Virus record (IMG/VR): IMGVR_UViG_3300030102_000228
Span: 1-61,783 of that record
Source of the DNA: a virus
Lineage: Duplodnaviria > Caudoviricetes
Length of the DNA: 61,783 nucleotides
Reading direction: 5' to 3' (one strand)
The position numbers and the translations under genes are program-made. Below the pieces are notes generated by a model. It saw nothing but the letters and a program-made list of their open reading frames with translations. It did not search any database and was not told where the DNA came from. Shown piece after piece: positions 22,141-42,258 of this stretch. Every line of letters begins with the position of its first letter. Position 1 is the stretch's first letter.

Positions 22141-22327
22141 CTAGCTCCAAATAGTTTTTCGCAAGGTCTTCTACGTGATTGCGGCAGGAGTCCAGACCTC
22201 GTATAACTCCTACGACTTCCCTGTATGCAGCGAAGTCTTGCGCTCCGCCACCAACAAGATGCTGTTGTGCTGCTTCTTTATCTTCTTCAAGCTTTTCTAA
22301 CAGCACCTCAAATACTGTTTTTGCCAT
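22130..22327 (-). CDS. Hypothetical 65-aa protein
   Basis: Coupled to the portal stop; helical. Confidence 0.7.
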   Translation of the reverse strand: MAKTVFEVLLEKLEEDKEAAQQHLVGGGAQDFAAYREVVGVIRGLDSCRNHVEDLAKNYLELDDD

Positions 22328-24753
22328 TACTTACCTTTCGTCAAGCCCATCATATCCATTCCAGCTTTGTTCTTAATCTTGATCTGCTCGTTCCTTGAGG
22401 AAACACCAGCTTTCTTAGCTTCAAGTTTGATTTCAGCCTTATCAATGGCTTCATCTGCCTTGTCTTTATCGATCTTGCGTTTGAGTTCTGCGGCTTGCAG
22501 TTGTAACTCAGCCTGATCTTTTTGTGTCTTACGCTGCACTTCAGCCATTTTAGCCTGCGCTTCCATCTGTCTAATTTGCAGATTTGGATCTTGCGCCTGC
22601 TGTTGTGCTGCTTGTTGTGCGGCTTTTTGCTGGTTTTCCTGTTGGAGTTGTTGTCCTGCGTCAGAGACGAGGCGAGACAGTTGTACTTCGATTTGTTCAG
22701 GCAGCTGTTCGTTTGGTGGAGGCAGCTCAACGCCCAACCGTTCTTCAATCTGCTGTCTGTACTGGAACCCAAGGTGTTCAGCTATATGTGCTTGCAGTGA
22801 AGACATAATCTGATTTGCCTGTGGGTTTTGCCCAATCATTTGTGCGACCATAGGATCTTTCATAAATGACATATGGGCGGCGATATGTGCTTGGTGGTCT
22901 TGATAAAGGAATGCTTTGACTGGTTTGCCAGTAAGTGCATCCATATTCTCGCTTACAGGATCTGCAGGTTTTGCATCGTCCGCTGTAGGAACAAGTTTAT
23001 CTGCGTTCTTGATTCCAAGAACTTCAATCATTTGCCTATGAAGCTGTGGTAAGTCGTATATCTGAGGCGCTTGTTGTGCCATTTGTAGCACGGCCTGATA
23101 CTGTACGACACGCTGTGCCATAGTTGAGCTGTTAGGATCACTAACGGGTATTACGTCAACCATCATATAGTCAGATTGGCGTGCGCTGATTTCGCCCCTA
23201 ATAGGTTCGTAATCGTAATCTATGGGTGCGTACTCAGACATAATTGCCTTGAGTAGTTTAAACTCCTGCTTCATGGCAAAGTGTACACGAGATTGTACAG
23301 CTGCCATTGGTTTCAGAGTGCGCTCTAATAGGGCCAGTGTTGTACCCACAGGAGCGTTTGCGGACATATCTGATATGTTCATGTCCGAAATAGCGCCAAG
23401 TCTACGTCCTTCTTGCGTGATTCTATCAAGCAAAGATAGCAAAGTTTGGCTTGGTTCTTTGTATGGCATGGGCATGATGTTGTCACGGATACTACCAGAC
23501 GGTACATCAACGTCTTTCCATTCCCCAGGTTCAATGGGACGATCGTCCCCCTTGATACGGAGTCCTCTGGACTTCAAACCCCCAGGGAGGTTGGAAAGGG
23601 TTCCAGCATCTACTAGCTGACGTATCAAGGAGGTTCCCGCCCGCGCGTACCCCCCAATGATGTGGATCAAGCCCAATCCATAGAACCCAAAACCTGGGAC
23701 GTATGGATAGTGGACAAAATGCTGACGCTTCAGCATTAGGGGATCAGCAGGGTTCCAATTTCTTCGGATACCCAGCACTTCTCCCGATCCAACTTCAATG
23801 GTGACTACGTACGGTTTAGCAATTTCATCTTCGGAATCATCGATGCCATCAATAACTAGATCTGCATGAACTTCGTATATAGCGAAGCGGTCATCGTCAG
23901 TTAACGAATACCCGCCTTCTTCCGCTTTTCTTTTTTCGATATCTGAATGGTACGGTTGCGGCTCCCCGATATCTACATCTCTGTAGAATCCAACAGACTG
24001 TAACTTCTTCAGTTCGTTTTTAGTTTTCCGCATAACGTGAGTTACACGCTCTGCGGTTTCGATATGTGTCGCACCGTAAGGTACGATTACATCTTCAGCT
24101 GGGATAAACAGAGCAACCTGTCTACCCAAATTAGGATCATAATAAACTTTCTTAAACGCAGACCCTGCTAGTCCTAGACTGTACAGCAACCGCTCATGTT
24201 CTGGACGGTACTCAACCATGTTCTCAGTCAACTGATAGTTCATATCAGCTTTGACTCGTAAGGATGCGTCTATTTTTTCTTGTGTCTCATCACCTAAAAT
24301 TTTTACTTTTACGGGACCATTAGCAGGAAATGTCTCTGACATTGTTTCAGCTTGGAAACGAATAGCAGCTTCTGCCAGCACAGTAGAGTATACCCCACAA
24401 GCTCCTTCCCATGGTTCTGTACGCTCTTCATACTTAAAGCCCAGTACGTCCAGACCCTTTACAAAGGTGTCTGCCCATTCTTTACGACTGTCCTCATCGC
24501 TTTCAATAAGGCCCATAAGCTCATCGGCTATGTAGCTAAGATCTCCCTCATCCAGCACTTCTGCTAGGTTAGCGTCAAAAGAAGTAGCATCACCTACATC
24601 CGCATCAGGGATGATGGTGATTTCCATGCTGCCGTCATCAAGAGTAACAGACTCAGGATTTACGATCTCTATTTCGAGTTCTTCTGGAGCTGCCGCTCCT
24701 TGTTCCTCGTCCATACCCACTGGGGCTTGATACACGCTTTTTTCTACTGCCAT
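22327..24753 (-). CDS. Portal protein (P22-like, with C-terminal barrel coiled coil)
   Basis: 808 aa, directly downstream of TerL; GSAFKKVYYD; Gln-rich helical C-terminus. Confidence 0.85.
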   Translation of the reverse strand: MAVEKSVYQAPVGMDEEQGAAAPEELEIEIVNPESVTLDDGSMEITIIPDADVGDATSFDANLAEVLDEGDLSYIADELMGLIESDEDSRKEWADTFVKGLDVLGFKYEERTEPWEGACGVYSTVLAEAAIRFQAETMSETFPANGPVKVKILGDETQEKIDASLRVKADMNYQLTENMVEYRPEHERLLYSLGLAGSAFKKVYYDPNLGRQVALFIPAEDVIVPYGATHIETAERVTHVMRKTKNELKKLQSVGFYRDVDIGEPQPYHSDIEKRKAEEGGYSLTDDDRFAIYEVHADLVIDGIDDSEDEIAKPYVVTIEVGSGEVLGIRRNWNPADPLMLKRQHFVHYPYVPGFGFYGLGLIHIIGGYARAGTSLIRQLVDAGTLSNLPGGLKSRGLRIKGDDRPIEPGEWKDVDVPSGSIRDNIMPMPYKEPSQTLLSLLDRITQEGRRLGAISDMNISDMSANAPVGTTLALLERTLKPMAAVQSRVHFAMKQEFKLLKAIMSEYAPIDYDYEPIRGEISARQSDYMMVDVIPVSDPNSSTMAQRVVQYQAVLQMAQQAPQIYDLPQLHRQMIEVLGIKNADKLVPTADDAKPADPVSENMDALTGKPVKAFLYQDHQAHIAAHMSFMKDPMVAQMIGQNPQANQIMSSLQAHIAEHLGFQYRQQIEERLGVELPPPNEQLPEQIEVQLSRLVSDAGQQLQQENQQKAAQQAAQQQAQDPNLQIRQMEAQAKMAEVQRKTQKDQAELQLQAAELKRKIDKDKADEAIDKAEIKLEAKKAGVSSRNEQIKIKNKAGMDMMGLTKGK

Positions 24754-26315
24754 TAGTAATACCCGCCACGCTTCTGCTTAAAATACTGTATCTCGTCAGG
24801 TTCATCAGTTGGCAGGCGGATAAATCCTCCCTGCCTAAATCTCATGAGTGCCATTACGGTAGAGTCTACCAAGTCATCGTGACTCATGAAAGGAAAACCT
24901 GCGATCTCCTCCACAACCTCTTCTGCCCATCGTGTCTGAGGTATCCATACCATACCCGATGCCACTATGTCAGCTACAGAATTAAGTCTTGCTAATTTAT
25001 CCCCTGTACCTCTATGAGGTGTGTATTCCTGCACAGGCAGGCCACTACGCCGCATTTCTTGGTAAATCGCCGTACCTGCGCTTTTCTTTTCCACTATAAA
25101 CGCATCTGGTTCCCACTCGTCATACTCTTCCATACACAGTTGTTTTAGTTCAGGGAACTCAAATCTGTCCTTTATACTATTCAACAGTATGATGTGATGC
25201 CCACCCTCACTCTCGTTTAGGAACACACCCCAAGTTGTCAACGCTGTATAGTCAGCTCGATTGTGTTTTTCAGCAGCGGCATCAAGAGACATGATAATAT
25301 ATTCACACGAAGGTGGACTTTCTGCTGTCCACGCATTCCACCATTCACGTTTAATAATAGAAGCTTCTTCTGCTGTAGGTGTCTGTTGATACTGTGCATT
25401 CCACTGAAACGCAGGCATTGACGCTTTAGTTCGTAGCAGTGCCTCCATGTCAAAGAACTCAGGCCACAGCGGTTTTTCTGTTGTCTTGCCCTTATTCTCA
25501 ATACTCAGTATAGCGGGGAACTCAACCACATCATATTGGTCAGCGAGGGCGTTCTGAGCTTGGTCTTTAACCACTCTTCCTGTGAGGTCGTCCATGTGCC
25601 AGCGGGTCTGAATGATTGCCACCTTACCCCCTGGCATAAGTCGAGTTCTGGCCCCGAATGTAAACCACTCGTAGGCTTTATCAAACACTTCAAAGTTTCC
25701 GTTGATGACATCTTGTTCGGAATGGGGATCGTCCACGAGCAAGAGGTGAGCACCACGACCAGCAAGAGCTGAACCAATACCACACGCATAGTATTCTCCT
25801 CCCATGTTTGTGTTCCATCTACCCGCAGACTTACTGTCAGAGGCTAGTGCTACAGTAGGAAATATCTCCTTATAACTATCAGATGCTATCATGTTTCGGA
25901 CTTTACGCCCAAAATCCACCGCTAAATCAGTAGTATGTGACACCATCATGACCTTTTTGTCAGGGTTTCTACCCAAAAACCATGCTGGGAACATGATAGA
26001 CACTAGTTGCGACTTACCATGTCGTGGTGGTATATTAACGCATATTCGGTCTTTTTTACCGAGTTCAATATCCATAAGCATATCTGCCAGCATTCTGTGG
26101 TGTTTGCCCACAATGTAATCTGGCTGCATATGTTTACAGAACTCAATGAGGTCATCATATGCTTTCTTATATTGTTGCCGTGTACTTATCTCCCCAGCAA
26201 GCTTGTCAATCTCAGCAATCTCTTCAGGAGAAAAAGAGTCCAAGTTGGCTAACATATGCTCTATGTCGGCTTCGGAAAATGAAAAGTCCTGTCTATCGCT
26301 GTCCAACGTGCTCAT
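24753..26315 (-). CDS. terL: Terminase large subunit
   Basis: Walker A PPRHGKS; Walker B LLLVDDP; QTRWHMDD; RNase H-like SLD...HDDLVD. Confidence 0.95.
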   Translation of the reverse strand: MSTLDSDRQDFSFSEADIEHMLANLDSFSPEEIAEIDKLAGEISTRQQYKKAYDDLIEFCKHMQPDYIVGKHHRMLADMLMDIELGKKDRICVNIPPRHGKSQLVSIMFPAWFLGRNPDKKVMMVSHTTDLAVDFGRKVRNMIASDSYKEIFPTVALASDSKSAGRWNTNMGGEYYACGIGSALAGRGAHLLLVDDPHSEQDVINGNFEVFDKAYEWFTFGARTRLMPGGKVAIIQTRWHMDDLTGRVVKDQAQNALADQYDVVEFPAILSIENKGKTTEKPLWPEFFDMEALLRTKASMPAFQWNAQYQQTPTAEEASIIKREWWNAWTAESPPSCEYIIMSLDAAAEKHNRADYTALTTWGVFLNESEGGHHIILLNSIKDRFEFPELKQLCMEEYDEWEPDAFIVEKKSAGTAIYQEMRRSGLPVQEYTPHRGTGDKLARLNSVADIVASGMVWIPQTRWAEEVVEEIAGFPFMSHDDLVDSTVMALMRFRQGGFIRLPTDEPDEIQYFKQKRGGYY

Positions 26316-27115: not shown

Positions 27116-27168
27116 AGCATCTTACGCAGGTTGTTAACCGATAGTTATTTTTTATACGCTATAATGAG

Positions 27169-27537
27169 TTATTCTGCAACACCGTGGTGTTCTTGCCAAT
27201 GTAGCTTGCGATGACAGTTAGCACACAGCGGTATACATTTCTCTTGCACTTCTTTCATTGCAGCTCCATACCGCCCTGCACCAATAAGCTCCCATATATT
27301 TTGTTTGCCCTCTTTTATAACGTGATGGAAATCTATGATGGCAGGATGCTTCTCTCCGCAGTGTGCGCATTTTAGCTTCGCTTTAAACTCAGCCCACTCC
27401 TGTTTGTACCTGCGCCGATTCCGTTTGGAGTCAGCTTTGTGTTTTTCTTTGTTACGCTGATACCATTCTTTTTGGTAGTTACGCTGATACTCGGTAGCCA
27501 TGTGGTCTTCCCCCCGATAGGAAGACCTCCCTTTCAT
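27169..27537 (-). CDS. HNH endonuclease (start may be 27501)
   Basis: CAHCGE...DFHH...KCIPLCANCHRKLH. Confidence 0.85.
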   Translation of the reverse strand: MKGRSSYRGEDHMATEYQRNYQKEWYQRNKEKHKADSKRNRRRYKQEWAEFKAKLKCAHCGEKHPAIIDFHHVIKEGKQNIWELIGAGRYGAAMKEVQEKCIPLCANCHRKLHWQEHHGVAE

Positions 27538-27544
27538 GCAAAAT

Positions 27545-27574
27545 ATTACATAGTGCGAAAAAAATTTTTGTCAA
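27545..27574 (-). promoter_or_regulatory. Possible sigma70-type promoter for the late arm
   Basis: TTGACA at 27574-27569 followed by an AT-rich -10 region (TATGTAATAT); spacing imperfect. Confidence 0.4.
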
Positions 27575-27842
27575 AAGAAGTTTAGGAGTCCCTATAGGGG
27601 GGTGTTCCCTGTGAGAGGGGGGTGGGGTAAGCCGAACGTAAATATGAACTCATAATTCGTGTAAAATAGTATTACATACAGCATATAGTAACAGACTATG
27701 ACAAGCGGCCTATGGGGAGGGGGTGGGATGTCAGAAAGTTGTAAACAATAACGTATTATGTCAAAACATCCATTGTAATTATTTTTAATTGATGCCATAA
27801 AGGGGGCGTCTTCAGGGCAACTCCGCCCTGTTGATTAACTCG

Positions 27843-27860
27843 GTTAGGGAATTCCCTAAC
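27843..27860. repeat. 18-bp palindrome copy 1 (GTTAGGGAATTCCCTAAC)
   Basis: Exact; degenerate 14/18 copy adjacent at 27863-27880. Confidence 0.95.
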
Positions 27861-27912
27861 TTGTTAGGGGATTGTCTAGCCTTAACTTCTTTTGTCATGA
27901 AAGGAAAAAGCT

Positions 27913-28464
27913 ATGACAAACTCTATCATTACAGACGGTATCTTGAACGCAATCCCTGTTGAAGTGAAGAAAGCATATCACGCCGACCAGTCGGCTGAGA
28001 AAGCTTTTGTCAAAAAACGGGGCGCGTTTATTGACTTGTGTTACTCTCTCAACATTCGGTCAAACATGGTTCAGTCTCCAAAGACTGGCGGCATGATTAC
28101 CGAAGAGGCATTCGAGGAACTGAATGCTATGATTGTTAGCGAATTTCCAGCTAATGAACAGAAGCTATTGGCTATGCCTGCCAAGGCGGTTCCAGAAGGT
28201 CGTAAAGATGTGAGGAAACAACTTCAGCAGAAGATTGGTTCCAAGCGGAAAGACCTAAAGAATGCTCTCAAGAGGCGTGAAGAGTTACACGCCCAAGGCA
28301 AAGGGGCGGACACTATCCGCACCAGAACATCTGAAGAGATATTGGCAAACTCTCTCACAGATGCCTTGAAGAGAGTGCAAACTCTTGAGGAACCGACTTT
28401 CGATGTTGAGGCTTTTGTTGAACACATCGAGGCGGCTCAGGAAGTCATGAAACAAGGTCTGTAA
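27913..28464 (+). CDS. First early gene, hypothetical helical protein
   Basis: 183 aa; RBS GAAAGGAAAAAG. Confidence 0.8.
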   Translation: MTNSIITDGILNAIPVEVKKAYHADQSAEKAFVKKRGAFIDLCYSLNIRSNMVQSPKTGGMITEEAFEELNAMIVSEFPANEQKLLAMPAKAVPEGRKDVRKQLQQKIGSKRKDLKNALKRREELHAQGKGADTIRTRTSEEILANSLTDALKRVQTLEEPTFDVEAFVEHIEAAQEVMKQGL

Positions 28465-28473
28465 ACAACTTAG

Positions 28474-28509
28474 GGCGAGGCAGTCAGACTGCCTCGCCTG
28501 TCTCTTTTT
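28474..28509 (+). terminator. Stem-loop, possible terminator
   Basis: GGCGAGGCAGT/ACTGCCTCGCC stem followed by TCTCTTTTT. Confidence 0.55.
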
Positions 28510-28523
28510 GGAAAGGAAAAATC

Positions 28524-28850
28524 ATGAAACTATCTGACAGTGAAAATCAACTTGCAACTTCTGGTATTACTCAAGAGGAATTGGAAGATTGGTTATCTAA
28601 ATCTGAAGAGACTGGCTCTTACCGAGGCTACGGTCGTCATACTATTGCTATGGCACTGCTAGCTAAGATTGAGGCTAACCAAAGAATAGCTGATATGAAC
28701 AAGGCAATGGCTGAGTCACTAGAAGAGATTGACCTAGCCGAATTGGATAAGGTCAACGAAAAATGGAAACGTGCTAACTCTAGTTGGTTAGAACGGTATA
28801 AGACTGTTGATGAGAAACGAAAGAAGTTGATGTACTACTTATCTCTATAA
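28524..28850 (+). CDS. Second early gene, hypothetical
   Basis: 108 aa; RBS GGAAAGGAAAAA. Confidence 0.8.
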   Translation: MKLSDSENQLATSGITQEELEDWLSKSEETGSYRGYGRHTIAMALLAKIEANQRIADMNKAMAESLEEIDLAELDKVNEKWKRANSSWLERYKTVDEKRKKLMYYLSL

Positions 28851-28857
28851 CAAATTT

Positions 28858-28887
28858 AGGCAGGGCTTTTTAGTCCTGCCTTTTTTT
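28858..28887 (+). terminator. Rho-independent terminator
   Basis: AGGCAGGGC-ttttta-GTCCTGCCT plus T-run. Confidence 0.85.
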
Positions 28888-28904
28888 GTGCCAAAATTTT
28901 GGCT

Positions 28905-29064
28905 GAAGCCAGTTCCCAGTGCCGCGTTGAGTCCAGGCGGATTCGGTATTGCCCACGCACACAAAGAAGTTAGGGAATTCCCTAACCCACAACGAAGCCA
29001 GTTCTCAGTGCCGCGTGGAGTCCATGCCTGTGGCGATGCCAGTTCTCGATGCCGCGTGTAGCCA
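28905..29064 (+). repeat. Three ~31-bp direct repeats GAWGCCAGTTCYCRRTGCCGCGT
   Basis: Copies at 28905, 28994 and 29035. Confidence 0.85.
28969..28986. repeat. 18-bp palindrome copy 2
   Basis: Exact. Confidence 0.95.
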
Positions 29065-29396
29065 ATGTTCTAAATGTTCCGTTGAATGTTCCAGAATGTT
29101 CTTTTTTATTTCAGCAAAAACGTACATTATGTTTTCGTGGTAAATCGTGACAAGGCGTGTTGGGCAAAGGTTTCCTGTGTTAGGGAATTCCCTAACTCGT
29201 AGGTGTATATATATAATGTTCTTTTTTTAAATTATTACTATCCCAGATTAAATTGACCAGAACAAGTTATGGTATGTACGCTTTTCTGTTCACCTACCTG
29301 TGGCGAGGTATCTACTTCTTAAATCACGGAACATTAGAACATTGTAAGTTTTACAGTGAGTTACTCAGCTACATTTTACGAACAATAGCGAACAAT
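29064..29396. other. Putative replication origin: converging AATGTTC/GAACATT iterons around AT-rich DNA
   Basis: AATGTTC at 29064, 29073, 29085, 29095, 29215; GAACATT at 29329, 29337; GAACAAT at 29380, 29390. Confidence 0.45.
29179..29196. repeat. 18-bp palindrome copy 3
   Basis: Exact. Confidence 0.95.
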
Positions 29397-29433
29397 ACAC
29401 AGCTTGGCACTATATACCACCATTTGTTATTAT

Positions 29434-29462
29434 TTGACATTTAATCACACTTGTAGTATAAT
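29434..29462 (+). promoter_or_regulatory. Consensus sigma70 promoter
   Basis: TTGACA (29434-39), 17 bp spacer, TATAAT (29457-62). Confidence 0.9.
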
Positions 29463-29468
29463 ATAAAG

Positions 29469-29516
29469 ATAGTGAGAGATTGGCTCGTTTTTTCCTTTCA
29501 TGGCCTCTCTCACTAT
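29469..29516 (+). ncRNA. Leader hairpin with anti-Shine-Dalgarno loop (candidate antisense RNA)
   Basis: 11-bp stem ATAGTGAGAGA/TCTCTCACTAT; loop TTTTTCCTTTCATG complementary to 27896-27909. Confidence 0.6.
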
Positions 29517-29549
29517 ACACCACAACACGTTGTCAAGAGGAGACATACA

Positions 29550-30485
29550 ATGACATCGCAAACAAACACACTGGTTACAACACCAACCAATGTTAGGGAA
29601 TTCCCTAACTCCACCGAAACTGCACCGACACTATCTTCTAGTGCCATGCTTGTTGAGTTATCCGTCTCATGTTGGACAGGACGCAAGAAAGACAAGCGTG
29701 CGTCACAAGACGTTACTGCAAGCAACGGTGCGGATGATGGCGTTGCTAATGTTCACAAGAAGCTACTTGCTGATTGCGAAGAATTGGTAGCGATACAAAA
29801 GTTTGTCGGTAACGTGCGTAACATACATTACGCATCTACACTGGCATGGTCAGACACTGGACTGCGCCTGTTACCAACAACAGCGTACTTTAAGTATCAC
29901 CAACAGATGACCGAATTGCAGACAGAGTTCTTCCGTTTGGAAAACATCTTTTCCTCTGGATACGATTGGGTTGTTACTCAAGCACAGGCCAAGCTAGGTA
30001 GCTTATGGGTTGCTGACGACTATCCAACTGTTGAAAGCATACGCAAGAAGTTTGGTTTCCGTCTGTCGTACATACCGTTGCCCGAAGCTGGTGACTTCCG
30101 TATTGATGTCGGTAATGAGGCCATGACACAAATCAAGTCTGAGTATCAGGCATTTTACGAGCGCACTTTCAACACAGCTATGAAGGACGTATGGCAACGT
30201 GTTTATGACGCATTGTCTCGTATGTCTGAGCGATTGGATTATTCTGACACTGAGAAGAAGCGTGTGTTTCGTGATACGCTAGTCAGCAACGCAACCGACT
30301 TGATTGACCTATTGGATATTTGCAACGTGTCACAAGACACACAAATGTCTGCACTGAAACTACAGTTAGAGGAGACACTATCTGGTGTCACACCTGATGG
30401 CTTGCGTGATGACGAGTACCTACGCAAGCAGACCAAAGCCAACGTGGACAGCATCATCGCAAACCTTCCCTCGTTGGATATATAA
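29550..30485 (+). CDS. DUF3150-like protein
   Basis: Start MTSQTN with AAGAGGAG RBS; LSVSCWTGRKKD...KKLL...YPTVESIRKKFGF pattern; upstream of AAA/vWA pair. Confidence 0.55.
   Translation: MTSQTNTLVTTPTNVREFPNSTETAPTLSSSAMLVELSVSCWTGRKKDKRASQDVTASNGADDGVANVHKKLLADCEELVAIQKFVGNVRNIHYASTLAWSDTGLRLLPTTAYFKYHQQMTELQTEFFRLENIFSSGYDWVVTQAQAKLGSLWVADDYPTVESIRKKFGFRLSYIPLPEAGDFRIDVGNEAMTQIKSEYQAFYERTFNTAMKDVWQRVYDALSRMSERLDYSDTEKKRVFRDTLVSNATDLIDLLDICNVSQDTQMSALKLQLEETLSGVTPDGLRDDEYLRKQTKANVDSIIANLPSLDI
29592..29609. repeat. 18-bp palindrome copy 4 (inside CDS)
   Basis: Exact; read as VREFPN. Confidence 0.95.
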
Positions 30486-30503
30486 GTTAGGGAATTCCCT
30501 AAC
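30486..30503. repeat. 18-bp palindrome copy 5
   Basis: Exact; immediately after TAA. Confidence 0.95.
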
Positions 30504-30530
30504 ATCAACCTTTGTCAAATGGAGAACAAA

Positions 30531-31625
30531 ATGACAAATCAAGCAATCCAAATGTATGCACTTAACCTTGACCAAATCACACAGGCTATCAAGGCCAACG
30601 GTCACAAACGCACAATGCTTGTGCAAGGCCACATGGGTACAGGTAAGTCATCAATCCTTAACGTGTTATCACAAGAGTTACCTAATCATATACCGTGTTA
30701 CTTTGATTGTACCACCAAAGATTTGGGTGACGTTATGATACCGAAGATGAGCGAAGCCGAAGGCAAAGACTATGTGGCTTTTGCGCTCAACGAAGAACTT
30801 GGTGTACATCATGGCAAGCCAGTCATCCTCATGATTGATGAGTATGGCAAGGCAAACCCTGCGGTCAAGAACGCACTGTTACGTCTTATGTTGGAGCGCA
30901 AGACAGGCGGTCACACACTACATCCAGACAGCATCGTGTTTGCTACAACAAATTTGGGTGCAGAGGGTGTCGGTGACTTGTTACCACCTCATGCTCGTAA
31001 TCGTATCGCTGTCGTTACTTCACGCAAGCCAAGCAATACCGAATGGATTGAATGGGGTATCAACAACGAGATTGACCACAGCTTGCTCGGTTGGTGTAAA
31101 GACAACCCACAACTGTTTGCATCTTTTGATGAGGTCAAAGACCCTGACGAAAACCCGTACATCTTTCATCCAAAGACACAACGTGCGGCATTCGTTACAC
31201 CTCGCTCATTGGAAGCTGCATCTGATTGGTTGAAACAACGTGCCTCTTATGATGACCAGACACTTACGGCTGTTCTCATGGGTACGATTGGTGAGCGTGG
31301 CGCAATGGACTTGATGGCGTTTGTCAAGATGTCTGACCAACTACCAACTTTGGAAAGCATCAAGACTGACCCGAAAAATGCCAAAGTGCCTGACAGTGCC
31401 GCCGCAGTTTGTATGGTTGTGTATCGCACACTAGCAAGTTTGGACAAGGATTGGGTCAATCAATGGATGGACTATCTTGTTCGTCTCGACAAAGAGGCAC
31501 AGGGTATGTTTGCCAATGGCGTACGCAATCCGAAGTATTCCAAGCAGTCACTTGTTATGACCAACAAGAAGTTTACTGAATGGGCTATGCAGAACAACTA
31601 TATGTTTGCGGCAGACAAAGCATAG
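30531..31625 (+). CDS. MoxR-like AAA+ ATPase
   Basis: Walker A GHMGTGKS; Walker B ILMIDE; sensor ATTN; TPRS. Confidence 0.85.
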   Translation: MTNQAIQMYALNLDQITQAIKANGHKRTMLVQGHMGTGKSSILNVLSQELPNHIPCYFDCTTKDLGDVMIPKMSEAEGKDYVAFALNEELGVHHGKPVILMIDEYGKANPAVKNALLRLMLERKTGGHTLHPDSIVFATTNLGAEGVGDLLPPHARNRIAVVTSRKPSNTEWIEWGINNEIDHSLLGWCKDNPQLFASFDEVKDPDENPYIFHPKTQRAAFVTPRSLEAASDWLKQRASYDDQTLTAVLMGTIGERGAMDLMAFVKMSDQLPTLESIKTDPKNAKVPDSAAAVCMVVYRTLASLDKDWVNQWMDYLVRLDKEAQGMFANGVRNPKYSKQSLVMTNKKFTEWAMQNNYMFAADKA

Positions 31626-31642
31626 TTAGGGAATTCCCTAAC
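31625..31642. repeat. 18-bp palindrome copy 6
   Basis: Exact; overlaps the stop codon. Confidence 0.95.
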
Positions 31643-31661
31643 TCAATCAATGGAGAATGAT

Positions 31662-32858
31662 ATGTTAGCAATAGGAAAAAATCTTACCACGGAACAACGG
31701 CTGTCAAAGGCCGTTGTCGATATCATGGCAAATCCAAAGTACATCGCACTCGCTGGTGTCCTCATGATTGGCAACCGTAGTATTGACAACACCAAAGCAC
31801 CGACAGCTTGCACCAACGGCAGAGACGAATGGTACAATTCCGAATTCGTTGACAAACTGTCTGACCCTCAACTGCGGTTTCTTGTCCTGCACGAAGTGTA
31901 CCACAAATTGTACAAGCACTTGATTACGTGGCAACATCTTTACAAGGACAACCCGAAGAAGGCCAACATCGCGTGTGACTATGTAATCAACATCAAGATT
32001 ACTGATGACAACAAAGATGGTTGGGCTGTCATGCCTGACGGTGGTTTCATCAACGAGAAGTATCGTGGCTGGGATAGTGCGGCAGTTTACGCTGACCTCG
32101 ATGACAACTGCGGTGGCGATGACAACGATGGTGATGACAGTGGCAATGGTCATGGTGGTTTCGATGAACACGATTGGGATGGCGCACAAGAACTGTCTGA
32201 CGCAGAAAAGCGTGACCTTTCTCGAGACTTGGATGAAGCAATCCGACAAGGTGCGCTCGTTGCTGGCAAGACTGGTTCTGGTGGTGACAGAGAACTTGCC
32301 GAGTTACTGCAACCACAAGTCAACTGGCGTGAGGTGTTACGTGAATTCGTGACAACAACTTGTCAGGGAAGCGACTATAGTACCTGGGCCAGGCCTAATC
32401 GTAGATACATAGCAACAGGTTATTATATGCCAAGCGGTATCAGTGAGAAGGTAGATGAACTTGTCATCGCTGGTGATATGTCTGGGTCAATCGGACAGCA
32501 CGAAATATCTGTCATACTCACTGAGGCCAAGTCAATATGTGACACTGTGAAACCTGACAAGGTACGCATCTTGTATTGGGATACCAAAGTCTGTGCTGAT
32601 GAAGTCTACGAACAGCACGAACTGGATGATATGGTAAACTCCACCAAACCTGCTGGCGGTGGCGGTACAACTGTGTCTTGTGTTCCTGAATACATGACAG
32701 ACAAGAACATCACACCACAAGCTGTTATCGTGATTACTGACGGTTATCTTGGTAGCGACTGGGGTAGCTGGTCTTGTCCTGTCCTGTGGGTAATCATCGA
32801 CAACAACACGATTGCACCGTCTGGTGTGACGCTTCATGTCAAAACCACTGACCTGTAA
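31662..32858 (+). CDS. DUF2201-type metallopeptidase + vWA-like protein
   Basis: PTACTNG; HEVYH (HExxH); NIACDYVIN; MIDAS DMSGS; GGGGT; ITDG. Confidence 0.85.
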   Translation: MLAIGKNLTTEQRLSKAVVDIMANPKYIALAGVLMIGNRSIDNTKAPTACTNGRDEWYNSEFVDKLSDPQLRFLVLHEVYHKLYKHLITWQHLYKDNPKKANIACDYVINIKITDDNKDGWAVMPDGGFINEKYRGWDSAAVYADLDDNCGGDDNDGDDSGNGHGGFDEHDWDGAQELSDAEKRDLSRDLDEAIRQGALVAGKTGSGGDRELAELLQPQVNWREVLREFVTTTCQGSDYSTWARPNRRYIATGYYMPSGISEKVDELVIAGDMSGSIGQHEISVILTEAKSICDTVKPDKVRILYWDTKVCADEVYEQHELDDMVNSTKPAGGGGTTVSCVPEYMTDKNITPQAVIVITDGYLGSDWGSWSCPVLWVIIDNNTIAPSGVTLHVKTTDL

Positions 32859-32862
32859 CAAA

Positions 32863-32880
32863 GTTAGGGAATTCCCTAAC
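32863..32880. repeat. 18-bp palindrome copy 7
   Basis: Exact; intergenic. Confidence 0.95.
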
Positions 32881-32899
32881 TTCACCTATGGAGGACGTA

Positions 32900-33406
32900 A
32901 TGGGCTATCGCTCAGAAGTATTCATCGCTGTCGCACTGCCAACCATTCCTGTTTTGTCGGAACTGGTTTCTGTGTATGCCATCGACCCTCGAGTTCAAAA
33001 ATGTCAGACCGTTGAGGACTGGTTGTTGAAAGAACAGGAATATCCAAACGGAAGTCGGTACGGTGGGCCATTTTACACCATGACTTATCACCACGAACAT
33101 ACCAAATGGTATGACGCATACGATGACGTTGGGGCTTTCATGCACCTCGGCAAACTATGTTCAACCTTTGCAGAAGAACGTGGTGATATGTTCTCATACG
33201 CATACAGATTTTGTCGCATCGGAGAGGAGCATGGCGACATAGAAGTAGACTCGCATGAGTCAGAAGATGGTCTGGGTCAAGCCATGTCTGATGAACTAAA
33301 TGACCTAGTGTATCCTGTGCAGATGTTGGAGATTGTCAACAGAGGTACAGATTGTCGACTAAACATAACCCCAAGTGGGTCTTTGCAAATCCAAAGAGGA
33401 GAATAA
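32900..33406 (+). CDS. Hypothetical protein
   Basis: MGYRSEV...KWY...FCRIGEE; GGAGG RBS. Confidence 0.75.
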   Translation: MGYRSEVFIAVALPTIPVLSELVSVYAIDPRVQKCQTVEDWLLKEQEYPNGSRYGGPFYTMTYHHEHTKWYDAYDDVGAFMHLGKLCSTFAEERGDMFSYAYRFCRIGEEHGDIEVDSHESEDGLGQAMSDELNDLVYPVQMLEIVNRGTDCRLNITPSGSLQIQRGE

Positions 33407-33408
33407 AA

Positions 33409-34458
33409 ATGGCATTATATTATTTCAACCACATCAAATTTTCTGAGGTGGAAAGACTTTATGACAGCACCAAGCCTGTCGTATCCAAGAACCACAGTAA
33501 GGCTGATGACGTTAGACCCATCGGGGACAGGAGACGTAAGTGGGAACGTGTAAAGAAGATATCACCTGACTGCTATCTGTTTCTTGATGGTTGTTACGGT
33601 GATGATGTATTCGGAGTGAGCGTGTGGAATCCTGACTACAAGGGAGCAACCCAAGAAGAAGTGGTTGCCTTTGCACCTATCAAGTGGGAGCGCAAATCAT
33701 GTGGTAACGAGTTTGTATCAATACGCAACGGTATTGGAGACTACGCACACACTGGACGCTATCAATTCATAAGTCGCAACCTACCAACAGGTTTGAGATT
33801 TATTGTACGGAATGGCAAGCAATTCGTATGTAACGACAGCAACTCGTATTATCTGCCCAAAGGCAAAGACATACCGAAGTCTTTGTATGAATACCGAAAG
33901 TCGCAAGGATATCGAAATGCTGAGAATGTGGAAACGTACACTCACGACCCACGAAACGCAGAGCTAGTATTCATGCGTGTAAACAACTCATGGCGTCTTG
34001 CACAAGACGAACACGCTCTGCCGAAACCACCTCGTACCTTGGTCAACAAACAACTCAAGGACAAATACAAGAAGGACATCGAGAAGTTTCGTGAGTACGT
34101 GTTTTCTATTGCACCTATGTTTGACACATCATCGGGGCAGGTTGGTTGGCACAACTACAACTGGGAGCAGAACAGGCAGATGAACACGGACTACCGTGAA
34201 GCGTGTGTAGAGGAGTTTCCAGATGTTGTCACACCAAACACGGGCAATATGCAACTAGACACCATTCCTGCAGAACTTGCAATACGTGTGATAAAGGACT
34301 ATAATAGTAAGATAAGATATTATCTTGCCTACCAGTTTGCGATACATTCTGATATTAGAAGTATCCAGACACAAGAAGATAGTAACAGAGTGAAGTCACA
34401 ATTCAATCGCTGGATAAACAAAATGTGTGGCTTTACCTACGTTGAAGACCGTAGTTAG
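33409..34458 (+). CDS. Hypothetical protein
   Basis: Start MALYYF with AAAGAGGAG RBS. Confidence 0.8.
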   Translation: MALYYFNHIKFSEVERLYDSTKPVVSKNHSKADDVRPIGDRRRKWERVKKISPDCYLFLDGCYGDDVFGVSVWNPDYKGATQEEVVAFAPIKWERKSCGNEFVSIRNGIGDYAHTGRYQFISRNLPTGLRFIVRNGKQFVCNDSNSYYLPKGKDIPKSLYEYRKSQGYRNAENVETYTHDPRNAELVFMRVNNSWRLAQDEHALPKPPRTLVNKQLKDKYKKDIEKFREYVFSIAPMFDTSSGQVGWHNYNWEQNRQMNTDYREACVEEFPDVVTPNTGNMQLDTIPAELAIRVIKDYNSKIRYYLAYQFAIHSDIRSIQTQEDSNRVKSQFNRWINKMCGFTYVEDRS

Positions 34459-34471
34459 GGAATTCCCTAAC
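34454..34471. repeat. 18-bp palindrome copy 8
   Basis: Exact; supplies the TAG stop of the upstream gene. Confidence 0.95.
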
Positions 34472-34492
34472 TACTACAAAGAGGAGACTAAA

Positions 34493-35356
34493 ATGGCTAA
34501 TTACGAACCAATCCCTGTGAGCAGTGCAAAGAAAATGCACAGCAACACACCCGACAGTGTATTACCAGACGAACTTGTTGTGCTGTGTGACAGACTGCAA
34601 CGCGCGATGCGTGGCATAAAGTTTGCGAACAAAAGCAAAAACAAAATCTGGTGTTACTTACCTAATCATCCGTTGACCATTGGTTACATTACATACGGTC
34701 AGCTACAGGATGACACAACCAATCGCTTGTGGGGTATTGTCTCGCATACCATAGACAATGGTAAGTATTCCGAATACAGAGTGGAGCGCAGAACTAAAAT
34801 GACTAGCAAGCTGGAGACAGCAGTGAAGCTGGCTAAGAAGTTTATGCGTCCTCACACTCTGCTTGAACTCAACAAGTACGCAAAGTCTGATATGACTTAC
34901 GAACTGTCGAAGTTGGCAAGCGATGCTAGAGACACCGCCACTACCGCTATACGCACTATCGGTGAGGATACTTTGTGGGCAGAGTTAAAGCGTCTATACC
35001 AGACTGACCATGAGTTTCATGACCCAACACTGCGTGACAAGTTAACACAAATGTACGAAGCTGAAGCACGAGCATCTCAGATAAAAGAAAAGTACAAGAC
35101 AGGTAACGGACTGCGTATGGCATTTGTCAACATATCGGAGTCTGTGTCGGGTCAACGGTTTGAATGTGCTGAAGTCAAACGCCCCACAAGTAGTTGGGAA
35201 CATGAGTTTGAGGACACCCATGTTTACTATGGCAGTGACTTACCAGAACATCTTACTGGTGCAATCGCTGTTCTAAGTATGCTTGGAGACAAAGAGTTTG
35301 TTGAGGGTGTCGGTTTCAAATGCAGTGACACTATGTACTATGTCGAACTACCTTAG
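34493..35356 (+). CDS. Hypothetical protein
   Basis: Start MANYEP with AAAGAGGAG RBS. Confidence 0.8.
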   Translation: MANYEPIPVSSAKKMHSNTPDSVLPDELVVLCDRLQRAMRGIKFANKSKNKIWCYLPNHPLTIGYITYGQLQDDTTNRLWGIVSHTIDNGKYSEYRVERRTKMTSKLETAVKLAKKFMRPHTLLELNKYAKSDMTYELSKLASDARDTATTAIRTIGEDTLWAELKRLYQTDHEFHDPTLRDKLTQMYEAEARASQIKEKYKTGNGLRMAFVNISESVSGQRFECAEVKRPTSSWEHEFEDTHVYYGSDLPEHLTGAIAVLSMLGDKEFVEGVGFKCSDTMYYVELP

Positions 35357-35630
35357 TATATCGGATGACAACATATATCGTGTATCAATAGACCCTGACA
35401 CCAAACTAGTCGAAATGGTATCTCTTGGTATGTTTAATGTTGACCCACAGCTGGAAGGGTTCTATGATGATGTAGATGACCTTCCAGTATGGGCGCAGGA
35501 AAAGTTGTCAGTGCTTATGTTATGCGATGCAGTGCCACCAACGCAAGAGATTGATGGTGTGGGTAAGCGAATAAGCACTCACGTTTACTGGCTGTACAAA
35601 TTGGAGATGGAAAATGAGAATGATGGATAG
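35340..35630 (+). CDS. Hypothetical protein
   Basis: DDLPVWAQEKLSVLML...IDGVG resembles the C-terminus of the preceding gene (SDLPEHLTGAIAVLSML...VEGVG). Confidence 0.7.
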   Translation: MSNYLSISDDNIYRVSIDPDTKLVEMVSLGMFNVDPQLEGFYDDVDDLPVWAQEKLSVLMLCDAVPPTQEIDGVGKRISTHVYWLYKLEMENENDG

Positions 35631-35805
35631 AGTAAAAAACAGAGCAAGAGTTACAAGCGTTATTCTGGGTGGGGCATTAGTTTATTTTCTAATTGCCATG
35701 ACAGCCCTGTTTTGGTTTGACTGGCTCTGGATGTTGGGTGTCGAAGAAAGTCAACGCTACACATGGTGGGGCGTGATTTATGGATTATCCAACGGTGGTT
35801 GGTAG
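35614..35805 (+). CDS. Small membrane protein
   Basis: Long hydrophobic, Trp-rich segment. Confidence 0.65.
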   Translation: MRMMDRVKNRARVTSVILGGALVYFLIAMTALFWFDWLWMLGVEESQRYTWWGVIYGLSNGGW

Positions 35806-35822
35806 TTAGGGAATTCCCTAAC
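35805..35822. repeat. 18-bp palindrome copy 9
   Basis: Exact; overlaps the stop codon. Confidence 0.95.
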
Positions 35823-35831
35823 TTTTGAATA

Positions 35832-35951
35832 GAGGTCAGGTTTTTGTGTTTCCTTTCCCCTGACCTCGAAGTGGCGGTTAGAGTGTAGTGTGTGCCGCCA
35901 CAAAAAGTGGGTGACAGCTTTGCCAAGTGGTGTTGTTGGGGCTGTCACCCA
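35832..35951 (+). ncRNA. Array of three large-loop hairpins (candidate sRNA)
   Basis: Stems 35832-40/35859-67, 35871-77/35895-901, 35908-18/35941-51. Confidence 0.55.
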
Positions 35952-36211
35952 TGATACCAGTTTTTACAAATGTAAGGTTTGAGGAAGTGATAGACACAAA
36001 AAAGATTGCTAATTTTTTCTGGGCGCATAGGCATAGGGATTTCTACCCCTTAGACGCACATAACGAAATCGATCCAGATTTTGATGAGTACCATGTATGT
36101 AAAGATGTTTTCATAGAAGAACCATATCGCTGTAAATCAACGGTTCTTTCAGAGAAGGTAGTGCGTGGCTTCAAGAAAGCGGAGAACGGAGAGGACGATG
36201 AGAGTAAATAA
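35951..36211 (+). CDS. Hypothetical protein
   Basis: ORF; start uncertain. Confidence 0.55.
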   Translation: MIPVFTNVRFEEVIDTKKIANFFWAHRHRDFYPLDAHNEIDPDFDEYHVCKDVFIEEPYRCKSTVLSEKVVRGFKKAENGEDDESK

Positions 36212-36608
36212 TCATCAGGGCTTGTGGGAAAAAGGTAACAAGAAATGCCTTTGCTGTAACAAAACTATTGCTGAGTTAAAAGAAGACTACAAAAAATTTA
36301 ATGACTTCAGAAAGGCCGCAGAACTCACCGCACAAACAAGAGCGATGCTTCTTAACGGCTTCTATGATTACATCAGTATTGAAACACATGGTAATCACTT
36401 TTGGTATACTTGGATGGGCAATACCTGTAGGTCTTGTAGCGGTGCGCCTCAGACGGTAGGGGAGATGTTTCTGGCGGTATATTCTGAAGGCGATTGGCTA
36501 TGCGACAAATGTTATGCTCGTAATCCACAAGACACGAAAGGCCGCTGGAAGTTTGCGCCATTGCCTGATGACGAAGAAATTGACGAAGACTACTTGACAA
36601 TGCCATAA
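36198..36608 (+). CDS. Cys-rich hypothetical protein
   Basis: CLCC, CRSC, CDKC; GAGAGG RBS. Confidence 0.65.
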   Translation: MRVNNHQGLWEKGNKKCLCCNKTIAELKEDYKKFNDFRKAAELTAQTRAMLLNGFYDYISIETHGNHFWYTWMGNTCRSCSGAPQTVGEMFLAVYSEGDWLCDKCYARNPQDTKGRWKFAPLPDDEEIDEDYLTMP

Positions 36609-36644
36609 ACTATCGTCAACTATCTAATGGTGAGGTAGGGTTCT

Positions 36645-37055
36645 ATGACACCAGAAGCAAAAGTAAAAAAGAAAGTAGTGGGTATTCTGAAGCGTTTAGG
36701 TGCGTACTACTTTTATCCTGTAACAGGTGGCTATGGCAGAAGCGGTGTGCCTGATGTTGTTGGATGTTATGAAGGTAAATTTTTTGGAATAGAATGTAAG
36801 GCAGGTACAAACACACCAACTGCATTACAAGAAAAGAACTTACGAGATATAGAACACAATATGGGTATTGCTCTTGTCATAAACGAAGATAACATTGATG
36901 AGGTTGAAATAGAGCTAACCCAAAGCGCTGCAGCACGTAGCAAACGTAACACACAGAAAGACGTTATACCTGATATCGACAACATGACTGACGAAGAATT
37001 AGAAGATTGGATATTTTCTGGTTCTGCTAATCCAGAAGATTTTGATGATAAATAA
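36645..37055 (+). CDS. VRR-NUC domain nuclease (Holliday junction resolvase-like)
   Basis: TPEAKVK...GVPDVV...FFGIECKAG...TALQ. Confidence 0.85.
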   Translation: MTPEAKVKKKVVGILKRLGAYYFYPVTGGYGRSGVPDVVGCYEGKFFGIECKAGTNTPTALQEKNLRDIEHNMGIALVINEDNIDEVEIELTQSAAARSKRNTQKDVIPDIDNMTDEELEDWIFSGSANPEDFDDK

Positions 37056-37218
37056 AGTCACTATAAAAGAAAAAGGTTTCTTTCAAAAAGCATACGAGAA
37101 TGGGGTATGCCCCAAGTGTAGTTGTAAAGTTGATTACACAAAAGAACCAATAGTCTGTTCAGTATGTAGCTTACAGATTTCTTATGGAGTGAAGGATGAC
37201 AGAACGAGAGAAACTTAA
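37045..37218 (+). CDS. 57-aa zinc-ribbon protein, not in ORF track
   Basis: CPKC...CSVC. Confidence 0.55.
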   Translation: MINKVTIKEKGFFQKAYENGVCPKCSCKVDYTKEPIVCSVCSLQISYGVKDDRTRET

Positions 37219-37354
37219 AGAGTGGCTAAAAACGTCACCCTTTATGTGGACTATCATTGACAGCGTTAGTGACAACAACGCTATAGTCGTTGAATTTGAG
37301 GTAGTCCAAAATAACCGAGACGGACAACAGGAGTTGCCTCTCGAAACAACCTAG
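37196..37354 (+). CDS. 52-aa hypothetical protein, not in ORF track
   Basis: MTEREKLKEWLKTSPF...QQELPL; GGAG RBS. Confidence 0.55.
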   Translation: MTEREKLKEWLKTSPFMWTIIDSVSDNNAIVVEFEVVQNNRDGQQELPLETT

Positions 37355-37371
37355 CCAAAATGGAGAATAAC

Positions 37372-37815
37372 ATGGCAAGAAAAAAGATGACTAAACAAGA
37401 GAAGGTTTGGAAGTATTTAATAAAAAATCCACTGGCCTCTACAAAAGACATAGCAGAGAAAGTGGGGTGTACACCTAAATATGTTTACTCACTCAGGAGT
37501 AAGACAGGTACGCCTAAAGAAATACTTGCGAAAGATATTAAACCACTAATGCCGCCACGCACAAAGGTGTTGACACAAGCAGACAAGCTGGTCAATGGCG
37601 CAAGGGCGGCTGAGTACGGTGACGCAAAGCAGAACTTTGAAGACATAGCAAAGTTATGGTCTGTGTTATTGGAGACAGAAGTGACCGCCCAACAGGTAGC
37701 ACTGTGCATGATTGCAGTAAAATCAGCTAGGCTGATGAAGTCAGCCAGTCACGATAGCTGGGTAGACATTTGCGGTTACGGTGCGCTCGGTGGCGAGTTG
37801 CATGAAAAAGTGTGA
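37372..37815 (+). CDS. HTH + DUF6378-like protein
   Basis: N-terminal HTH (TKDIAEKVGCTPKYV); LVNGARAAEYGD...NFEDIAKLW...DSWVDICGY. Confidence 0.75.
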   Translation: MARKKMTKQEKVWKYLIKNPLASTKDIAEKVGCTPKYVYSLRSKTGTPKEILAKDIKPLMPPRTKVLTQADKLVNGARAAEYGDAKQNFEDIAKLWSVLLETEVTAQQVALCMIAVKSARLMKSASHDSWVDICGYGALGGELHEKV

Positions 37816-37972
37816 CGAATGTAACAAGGATGCCATTGTGGAGAGCGGTGGCATCCTTATTTGTGCAGAATGTTACATGAGAAAAGTGAAAGAGGAACAA
37901 CGTGGATTTAATCACTCTAGATTTCGAGACATACTACAGCCAAGATTTCAGTCTGAGCAAAGCAACGACTGA
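37802..37972 (+). CDS. Small zinc-ribbon protein
   Basis: CDEC...CAEC; overlaps the polymerase start. Confidence 0.45.
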   Translation: MKKCDECNKDAIVESGGILICAECYMRKVKEEQRGFNHSRFRDILQPRFQSEQSND

Positions 37973-40644: not shown

Positions 40645-40657
40645 GGAATTCCCTAAC
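40640..40657. repeat. 18-bp palindrome copy 10 (17/18)
   Basis: CTTAGGGAATTCCCTAAC; supplies the TAG stop. Confidence 0.9.
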
Positions 40658-40671
40658 ACTTGGAGATAAGA

Positions 40672-42207: not shown

Positions 42208-42228
42208 CTAGCCAAACGTCACTATCTA
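42200..42228 (+). promoter_or_regulatory. Possible sigma70-like promoter
   Basis: TTGACT, 17 bp spacer, TATCTA. Confidence 0.4.
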
Positions 42229-42258
42229 TTAAGTATTAATGACAATTTGGAGAGCGTC

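Follow-up and report, generated by a model that had tools for sequence, protein, structure and literature searches.

Stem-loops that stabilize the messages carrying them are reportedly found at the 5' termini of bacterial mRNAs, the ompA and papA 5' UTRs studied by Belasco and colleagues among them. In phages, c4 and sar are discrete small RNAs whose action has genetic proof. PMC12197685 describes c4 of P1 and P7 as a regulatory antisense RNA and lists sar of P22 at 68/69 nt. Stem-loops next to phage promoters are also known from the PeSL cassettes of T4-type phages, which PMC2839356 describes as multi-copy elements of hyperplastic regions whose stem-loops are terminators or attenuators, often with G-run/C-run stems. 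RppH and RNase E require single-stranded 5' ends, and this requirement explains the long-known stabilization by 5' secondary structure, according to PMC3997798.

We examined a promoter and hairpin of this general kind in the window, by which we mean the whole stretch of 61,783 bp, a complete IMG/VR virus record with a tailed-phage gene layout. Its main landmarks are listed below.

2 to 27537, minus strand: structural genes
22327-24753, minus strand: portal
24753-26315, minus strand: large terminase (terL)
27913 to 47163, plus strand: block with a DUF3150-like gene, an AAA ATPase, a DUF2201/VWA protein, DNA polymerase A, a helicase and a primase

After the plus-strand block comes a second minus-strand block, which encodes a 2246-aa DarB-like protein; a search for tRNA genes found none, and the phage looks virulent. 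By TerL, its nearest isolates are the Pelagibacter phages HTVC027P and HTVC023P, together with two uncultured phages (44-47% identity), and neither megablast nor blastn found a DNA-level match to 27700-30500 in the phage collection. The public runs that contain sequence of this phage are marine or aquatic metagenomes, and no RNA run among those listed holds it. The phage group is one of widespread, uncultured, marine, siphophage-like viruses. At the start of the plus-strand block we find the following features.

27913-28464, plus strand: gene 1, 183 aa, without known family
28473-28499: terminator-like hairpin and T-run after gene 1
28524-28850, plus strand: gene 2, 108 aa, without known family
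28858-28881: terminator-like hairpin and T-run after gene 2
28905-29397, no strand assigned: repeat-dense intergenic region directly upstream of the promoter
29404-29433, plus strand: a second, weaker promoter-like site in tandem with the main promoter and abutting it, TTGGCA-18-TATTAT (10/12; TG precedes the -10)
29434-29462, plus strand: sigma-70 consensus promoter TTGACA-17-TATAAT, 12/12, the sole 12/12 match in the window on either strand
29469-29516, plus strand: 5'-leader hairpin with an outer 11-bp stem, inner pairs and an 11-nt apical loop
29500-29553, plus strand: upstream frame of 17 codons, opening within the hairpin and overlapping the gene 3 start (ATGA), without an SD
29536-29543, plus strand: gene 3 SD, AGAGGAGA
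29550-30485, plus strand: gene 3, DUF3150-like (below the Pfam cut-off), first in the promoter's operon

Genes 1 and 2, for which PHROG, Pfam and Atlas give no family, each end in a terminator-like hairpin with a T-run and thus appear to form their own short unit. Gene 3 is followed by the AAA ATPase and DUF2201/VWA genes and, later on the same strand, by the replication genes. The repeat-dense region contains three 34-nt direct repeats, four copies of AATGTTC (29064-29101), TATATATATA (29206-15), two inverted GAACATT (29329-43), two copies of CGAACAATA (29379-97) and an AT-rich run, and is a candidate origin or regulator-binding region. The 17-codon frame is probably not a gene; a leader peptide was rejected, the upstream frames in related loci differing in frame, length and peptide.

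Promoters were scored against the sigma-70 consensus TTGACA/TATAAT with a spacing of 16-18 nt. The element ahead of gene 3, with its -35 hexamer TTGACA at 29434-29439, a 17-nt spacer and the -10 hexamer TATAAT at 29457-29462, is, as predicted from its sequence, the phage's main host-RNA-polymerase promoter; the remaining matches in the window are one 11/12 site at 6051 (minus strand) and 14 sites at 10/12, and no sigma-70-like promoter was visible in the scan ahead of gene 1 (27913). Since this is the only 12/12 promoter in the genome, the gene 3 unit more likely fires first than second, and its operon is probably the earliest.

Transcription is predicted to start at 29469, at the customary distance from the -10 hexamer (7 nt), and this position is the first base of an outer stem in which the 5' arm ATAGTGAGAGA (29469-29479) pairs with TCTCTCACTAT (29506-29516) over 11 bp. 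The minimum-energy fold adds the inner pairs GGC/GCC (29482-84 with 29503-05) and CGU/AUG (29486-88 with 29500-02), so that the open apical loop is only 11 nt, UUUUUCCUUUC (29489-29499). On its own the hairpin folds at -19.6 kcal/mol (z = -5.5), and none of 200 shuffles folds as well; over 92 nt the fold has -24.8 kcal/mol (z = -3.27). No Rfam covariance model matched 29434-29516 at E up to 1. The stem is followed by ACACCACAAC, without a U-run, and an intrinsic terminator was rejected given this absence and given that the site is not among the listed terminator-like sites. An RNase III site was set aside because the stems in relatives are only 5-14 bp long.

A search of IMG/VR with the gene 3 protein yielded 63 loci at 42-65% identity. 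Among loci with enough upstream flank, the common gene order has terL and a 196-aa gene on one strand and genes 1, 3 and 4 on the other, with exceptions that include L035, L039, L040, L046 and L057, in which gene 3 is preceded by the homologue of gene 4; the gene 1 homologues at the same place are weak, with 26-33% identity where detected. A promoter of at least 10/12 occurs at the same place, within 350 nt upstream of the gene 3 homologue, in 35 of the 63 loci (two of the 63 are without upstream DNA), and 20 of the promoters are 12/12. After 18 loci with identical or near-identical hairpins were dropped, 17 distinct hairpin regions were kept, and we scored as a hairpin a minimum free energy of at most -7 kcal/mol over 40 nt with a helix of at least 6 pairs and a first paired base at index 7 or lower, the index being counted from 0 and the folded segment beginning 3 nt after the -10. 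Such a hairpin is present in 10 of the 17 distinct relatives, as well as in the window, and the hairpin sequences are quite different; random 40-nt segments of the same loci score as hairpins in 776 of 2700 cases (29%; binomial P = 0.004). The other seven (L003, L018, L028, L034, L037, L038 and L063) fall short, L038 and L063 at -6.9 kcal/mol. With about twofold enrichment and 7 of 17 lacking it, a hairpin at the +1 is thus frequent, not universal.

L011, L013 and L055 have a homologous stem in which all 8 pairs are preserved despite substitutions, namely one compensatory double change and, at three pairs, four one-sided ones. A palindromic DNA site would likewise be expected to change symmetrically in its two arms. 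The outermost arms are separated by 26 nt in the window and by as little as about 3 nt in relatives, a variability more in keeping with an RNA stem than with a DNA site bound by a dimer. In L004, L005 and L020 the hairpin lies beside the promoter despite a gene 3 that starts 302-316 nt downstream, which associates the hairpin with the 5' end of the RNA rather than with the start site of gene 3. The window hairpin is much longer than those of its relatives and has an 11-nt all-pyrimidine loop.

These observations bear on an earlier note on this DNA, which had described a consensus promoter firing directly into a hairpin, with the predicted +1 on the first base of an 11-bp stem. The promoter reads directly as 12/12 and is found at the same place in the 35 related loci, the stem (29469-79/29506-16) does begin at the predicted start, and the promoter-to-hairpin arrangement holds in the window as in the 10 distinct relatives. 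The same note had treated the gene 3 unit as a second transcription unit that shuts off the first, an order that finds no support in a genome whose sole 12/12 promoter stands ahead of gene 3 and whose scan shows none ahead of gene 1.

Because promoter and hairpin recur while the hairpin sequence varies, the most likely function is a structural one. We propose, with confidence that is about evenly balanced, that the hairpin protects the message as a stem-loop at the 5' terminus of the leader, in the main and probably earliest operon. In this model, host RNA polymerase would start the mRNA of the DUF3150/AAA ATPase/VWA operon at the 29434-29462 promoter, beside the origin-like region, and the first 48 nt of the transcript would fold, with pairing that sets in at the predicted first base or only a few nt away from it. 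The base-paired 5' end would then shield the mRNA of the operon with the strongest transcription from 5'-end-dependent decay enzymes of the RppH/RNase E type, where decay of this type in the phage's host is an assumption.

The apical loop has a second property, its complementarity to the ribosome binding sites (RBS) of genes 1 and 2, for which three further features are needed.

27891-27920, plus strand: gene 1 start region, containing the 14-nt loop target 27896-27909
28511-28521, plus strand: gene 2 RBS 11-mer GAAAGGAAAAA, just behind the gene 1 terminator-like hairpin
24884-24897, minus strand: another 14-nt stretch complementary to the gene 1 start region, located within the terL mRNA (codons GFPFMS) and serving as a chance control

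A protective role leaves the oversized pyrimidine loop, and its match to what amounts to a private RBS tag on genes 1 and 2, unexplained. The loop sequence TTTTTCCTTTCATG (29489-29502) is the exact 14-nt reverse complement of CATGAAAGGAAAAA (27896-27909), which ends 3 nt ahead of the gene 1 ATG at 27913, and the match reaches 18 nt through G27910-U29488, C27911-G29487, U27895-G29503 and G27894-C29504, two of these being G-U pairs. The gene 2 11-mer ends 2 nt ahead of its ATG at 28524, and the 11-nt apical loop (29489-29499) is the exact complement of the 11-mer common to both RBSs, with 27899-27909 and 28511-28521 as its pairing partners. When both strands of the window were searched, this 11-mer was present at three places only. 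At both genes the SD has normal spacing, its GGA standing 6-7 nt ahead of the ATG. The gene 1 start region has a predicted hairpin of its own, UUUGUCAUG/UAUGACAAA, in which the AUG (27913-15) is paired and AAAGGAAAAAGC is placed with the SD in a 12-nt loop, a weak fold whose energy is not significant (-6.7 kcal/mol, z = -0.57).

To what extent such a match is expected by chance depends on what is counted. The window contains 73 maximal inverted pairs of at least 14 nt, of which 18 lie outside the GTTAGGGAATTCCCTAAC palindrome family (a hand count from the listing), versus a mean of 8.3 (range 2-14) in 30 dinucleotide shuffles, and a bare 14-nt inverted match is not rare across 62 kb. We also compared 4299 control segments of 56 nt, drawn from both strands outside the hairpin, the palindrome family and the opposite strand of the region itself. 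A single control (1/4299) reaches 14 nt when set against the two start regions, and the next best reaches 10 nt; against the 2.3-kb region 27116-29423, 5 of 4299 reach at least 14 nt, most of them, by coordinates, on or beside a palindrome copy or the gene 2 terminator. Given that controls almost never match the start regions and that the 11-mer is confined to three places, the placement of the match is unlikely to be due to chance; we put its post hoc probability at roughly 1e-2 to 1e-4, which is an estimate and not a computed value, nor a proof of function. The sole 14-nt control match is the terL site, and relatives encode the conserved FPFM residues there by other codons. The FPFM codons explain this match, and accidental 14-nt complements of the gene 1 RBS therefore do occur in the genome.

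We then looked for the complementarity in relatives, comparing the first 56 leader nucleotides of 22 distinct relatives with the full stretch of DNA (747-3820 nt) that separates the divergent gene from the promoter. None of the 22 has a non-palindromic leader complement of at least 12 nt, and only the window reaches 14 nt; with each locus's own intergenic palindrome set aside, the longest complement in relatives is 11 nt (L028 and L029), and none lies in the hairpin loop. The group L049-L054 plus L062 has in common with the window the palindrome TTAGGGA..TCCCTAA and the repeat layout upstream of the promoter. Read by eye, its hairpin has GAGATTGG, TTCCTTTC and CATG as in the window; MAFFT does not place GAGATTGG/TTCCTTTC of the window and L050 in register, and the homology of the hairpins rests on the visual reading. 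Gene 1 in this group has a good sigma-70 promoter and a GGAG-type RBS. The whole 58.9-kb genome of L052, with up to 3 mismatches allowed in 17 nt, contains nothing complementary to its loop besides the hairpin itself, showing that the pyrimidine motif exists without an RBS partner in a relative.

The only close relatives found (gene 1 protein at 100% and 96% identity) are the metagenome contigs L072 and L073, which end before the promoter and hairpin. Over the 77 nt before the gene 1 ATG, L073 has no substitution in 76 aligned nt, compared with 50 differences in 507 positions of the coding part and 34 in 93 further upstream. At the coding-part rate an unchanged gene 1 leader has P ~4e-4, and these 77 nt are, judging from this alignment, under strong constraint. 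The gene 2 tag has changed in L073, A to T, and reads GAAAGGAAATA. In the contigs of 4 public DNA runs, the hairpin is covered by the window's own strain only, without a variant there, and a protein 95% identical to gene 1 (P0001) is encoded on a contig that is at most 28 kb long. Viral contigs scanned for the hairpin stems with any loop and for a 21-nt iteron stretch gave no match, and a search of viral contigs with the gene 1 protein gave no relative.

Of the claims made previously for the loop, the pairing itself is confirmed in the sequence, both as the exact 14-nt complement of the gene 1 RBS (18 nt with two G-U pairs) and as the 11-nt pairing with the gene 2 RBS at 28511-28521. The conclusion drawn from it, that the second unit shuts off translation of the first two genes, is not supported, with complementarity in 0 of 22 distinct relatives and no target in L052. 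The earlier note had itself proposed that loss of the complementarity in relatives would count against this idea, and it is absent at every distance available. The complementarity is real, confined to the phage's own lineage, and may be an add-on or a coincidence. A lineage-specific antisense function is possible because the contigs of the close relatives stop before the hairpin.

The complementarity nevertheless invites a reading in which the leader acts in trans, its loop pairing with the gene 1 SD loop and, more weakly, with the gene 2 RBS, so that pairing spreads to 14-18 bp, ribosomes are blocked and the output of the strong promoter turns down genes 1 and 2. We regard such an anti-RBS leader as unlikely, although it is the natural candidate for explaining the oversized loop and its RBS match, and it would be additional to protection, not a replacement for it. 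The exact 14-nt match with its extension to 18 nt, the fact that the apical loop complements an 11-mer shared by both RBSs and absent elsewhere in the window, and the single match in 4299 controls all speak for it. So do the energetics: the duplex of the loop region with the gene 1 start is the best of 72 start regions at -26.1 kcal/mol (next best -16.2, gene 2 -15.5 kcal/mol), the cofold net gain for gene 1 once the cost of unfolding is deducted, -5.4 kcal/mol, is likewise the best of 72, and the isolated 11-nt loop pairs at -11.8 kcal/mol with gene 1 and at -11.6 kcal/mol with gene 2. Both partners are predicted to be exposed in loops, the complementary bases in the apical loop of the leader and the target in that of the gene 1 start region, making a loop-loop contact between leader and gene 1 start region possible on paper, and the gene 1 leader is free of substitutions (0/76 nt) relative to L073. 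There is also a precedent in the c4 RNA of P1/P7, described in PMC12197685 as binding around the ant RBS through complementary sequences displayed in loops. Against the anti-RBS leader, however, the complementarity occurs in none of the 22 distinct relatives; the L049-54/L062 hairpin has GAGATTGG and TTCCTTTC and yet faces a GGAG-type gene 1 RBS, with L052 lacking a target; and the one 14-nt control match, in the terL mRNA, arose by accident through the FPFM codons. For gene 2, cofolding brings a net gain of 0.0; the pairing is rich in A/U, only 3 of its 11 pairs being G-C; the gene 2 tag is already altered (A to T) in L073, and the absence of a terminator-like site behind the hairpin leaves no discrete small RNA. 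Moreover, the promoter probably belongs to the earliest unit and not to a second one. A fuller version, in which the leader of the strongest operon doubles as a lineage-specific trans regulator whose loop kisses the gene 1 SD loop and the gene 2 RBS, is in our judgment similarly doubtful; in it, genes 1 and 2 would carry a private RBS tag, and a burst from the promoter would silence both without a dedicated small RNA gene.

The remaining explanations do without a distant target. Control of gene 3 translation in cis, which we consider improbable, could take the form of a pseudoknot between the pyrimidine loop UUUCCUUU and the gene 3 SD AGAGGAGA 37 nt downstream, of a pyrimidine-rich ribosome (S1) landing site, or of coupling of ribosomes into gene 3 by the 17-codon frame. 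The loop can form 8 bp (two G-U) with this SD at -7.9 kcal/mol, but weak pairing is expected between any pyrimidine tract and any SD; the L050 group has UUCCUUUC near a GAGGA-type SD, but most relatives have short or purine-rich loops such as GAGUUAU and GAGAGAUU; and the upstream frame does end in an ATGA overlap with the gene 3 start, but it has no SD and its counterparts vary in frame, length and peptide as described above. The hairpins about 300 nt from gene 3 in L004, L005 and L020 also count against cis control. An element acting at the DNA level, either a binding site for a phage regulator, formed by the inverted repeat over the +1 and/or by CATGAAAGGAAAA in either orientation, or an origin-linked single-strand hairpin signal, fits the abutment of the promoter on phased direct and inverted repeats and an AT-rich run, a layout kept in L049-54/L062. 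It also fits the three occurrences of the 13-mer CATGAAAGGAAAA in the duplex (24885, 27896 and, inverted, 29490), and the symmetric arm changes suit a palindromic operator equally. Such an element is nonetheless very unlikely in view of an outermost-arm distance that varies from about 3 to 26 nt among relatives, a hairpin that is always just downstream of the -10 and transcribed in the sense direction, a 24885 copy that is explained by terL codons, and a motif that stands at normal SD spacing at genes 1 and 2. Lastly, there may be nothing beyond the promoter, with hairpin and complementarity being by-products of local sequence history such as expansion of a T/C run in the loop. The excess of non-palindrome 14-nt inverted pairs in the window (18 versus 8.3 in shuffles), the 7 of 17 distinct relatives without a scored hairpin and the accidental second match in terL are all in line with this idea, which we give little chance of being correct: the window hairpin has z = -5.5, and +1 hairpins are enriched in relatives (P = 0.004) with pair-preserving changes.

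If the protective reading is true, the hairpin marks the main early promoter and leader in an uncultured marine phage group. A base-paired mRNA 5' end that recurs across the group would help to annotate the transcription units of metagenomic phages, and would be unsurprising. If instead the antisense reading is true, an mRNA leader regulates other phage genes through a private RBS tag, and a virulent marine phage joins a very short list of phage anti-RBS RNAs.

Each of the known systems resembles this locus in part. As in the PeSL cassettes, a strong sigma-70-like phage promoter adjoins a stem-loop, and in one PeSL subclass the stem-loop lies downstream of the -10, as given in PMC2839356; unlike PeSL, the arrangement here is present in a single copy per genome, lacks a U-run, belongs to another phage group and has no sign of cassette mobility. 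The likeness to c4 and sar is that of a phage RNA in which a loop-displayed complement covers the RBS of another phage gene, the blocking here being predicted, whereas the candidate here is an untrimmed mRNA leader without a terminator, and the match is kept in no relative examined. With the ompA and papA 5' stem-loops the locus would share, if the predicted start is right, a stable hairpin at or near the 5' end of an abundant mRNA, upstream of and separate from the RBS; it also shares with them a hairpin sequence that varies while the pairing is kept. It differs from them in that the window loop is unusually long (11-18 nt) and pyrimidine-only, and in a transcription start that is a predicted one.

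The 77 nt preceding gene 1 (27836-27912) carry no substitution relative to L073, a metagenome contig whose gene 1 protein is 96% identical, whereas 50 of 507 positions differ in the coding part of gene 1 and 34 of 93 in the sequence farther upstream. The leader of gene 1 is under strong constraint. No sigma-70 promoter is recognisable within these 77 nt.

The leader hairpin downstream of the promoter of gene 3, which encodes a DUF3150-like protein, has a loop complementary to the gene 1 ribosome-binding site, and the terL mRNA (minus strand, 24884-24897) shares 13-14 nt with this loop (UUUUCCUUUCAUGA). In terL this stretch codes for the conserved residues GFPFMS, which are encoded by other codons in the terL genes of relatives. 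We regard this second complement of the gene 1 site as accidental.

A perfect 18-nt palindrome, GTTAGGGAATTCCCTAAC, occurs in ten copies, all confined to the plus-strand early/replication block of the window. Most copies are directly preceded by stop codons, and one lies within the coding sequence of gene 3, at codons 15-20.

Copies of GTTAGGGAATTCCCTAAC in the window
27843-27860, copy 1
28969-86, copy 2
29179-96, copy 3
29592-609, copy 4
30486-503, copy 5
31625-42, copy 6
32863-80, copy 7
34454-71, copy 8
35805-22, copy 9
40641-57, copy 10

Relatives have their own, different palindrome at a similar kind of position (for example, TTAGGTAATTACCTAA, TGTATACATATGTATACA, TTCGGGCATCTGCCCGAA and TATGACCAAAGTTTGGTCATA). 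The palindrome of the window may form a hairpin in the RNA between cistrons or, alternatively, serve as the target of a co-evolving dimeric DNA-binding protein.

Between gene 2 and the promoter lies a gap of 700 nt that is likewise crowded with repeats, at 28905-29397.

Repeats upstream of the promoter
28905, 28994 and 29035, three 34-nt direct repeats
29064-29101, four copies of AATGTTC spaced 9-12 nt apart
29206-15, TATATATATA
29329-43, two inverted copies of GAACATT
29379-97, two copies of CGAACAATA

The related loci L049-54/L062 share this layout, and a further relative, L011, has three copies of GAACATTACA immediately upstream of its promoter. The repeat region resembles a replication origin or, alternatively, a stretch of closely packed regulator-binding sites. 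Behind gene 3 lie genes for a MoxR-like AAA ATPase and a DUF2201 metallopeptidase/VWA protein (30519-32858); in a comparison covering the ATPase gene, it stands directly 3' of the DUF3150-like gene in most relatives examined.

Reading by eye, we find GAGATTGG or GAGATTT/GAGATTG 8-15 nt after the -10 element in four otherwise different hairpins (window, 29474-29483; L050, 2650-2660; and the hairpin loops of L007 and L063), placed in the stem in some and in the loop in others. A 17-codon frame (29500-29553), which has no Shine-Dalgarno sequence, begins within the window's hairpin; its end overlaps the start of gene 3 in the sequence ATGA. The peptides of such upstream frames are dissimilar between the window and its relatives. 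In the leaders of four groups of relatives (L007, L063, L049 and L050), an ATG lies 7 nt after the -10 element, at the predicted first base of the transcript, an arrangement like that of leaderless messages.
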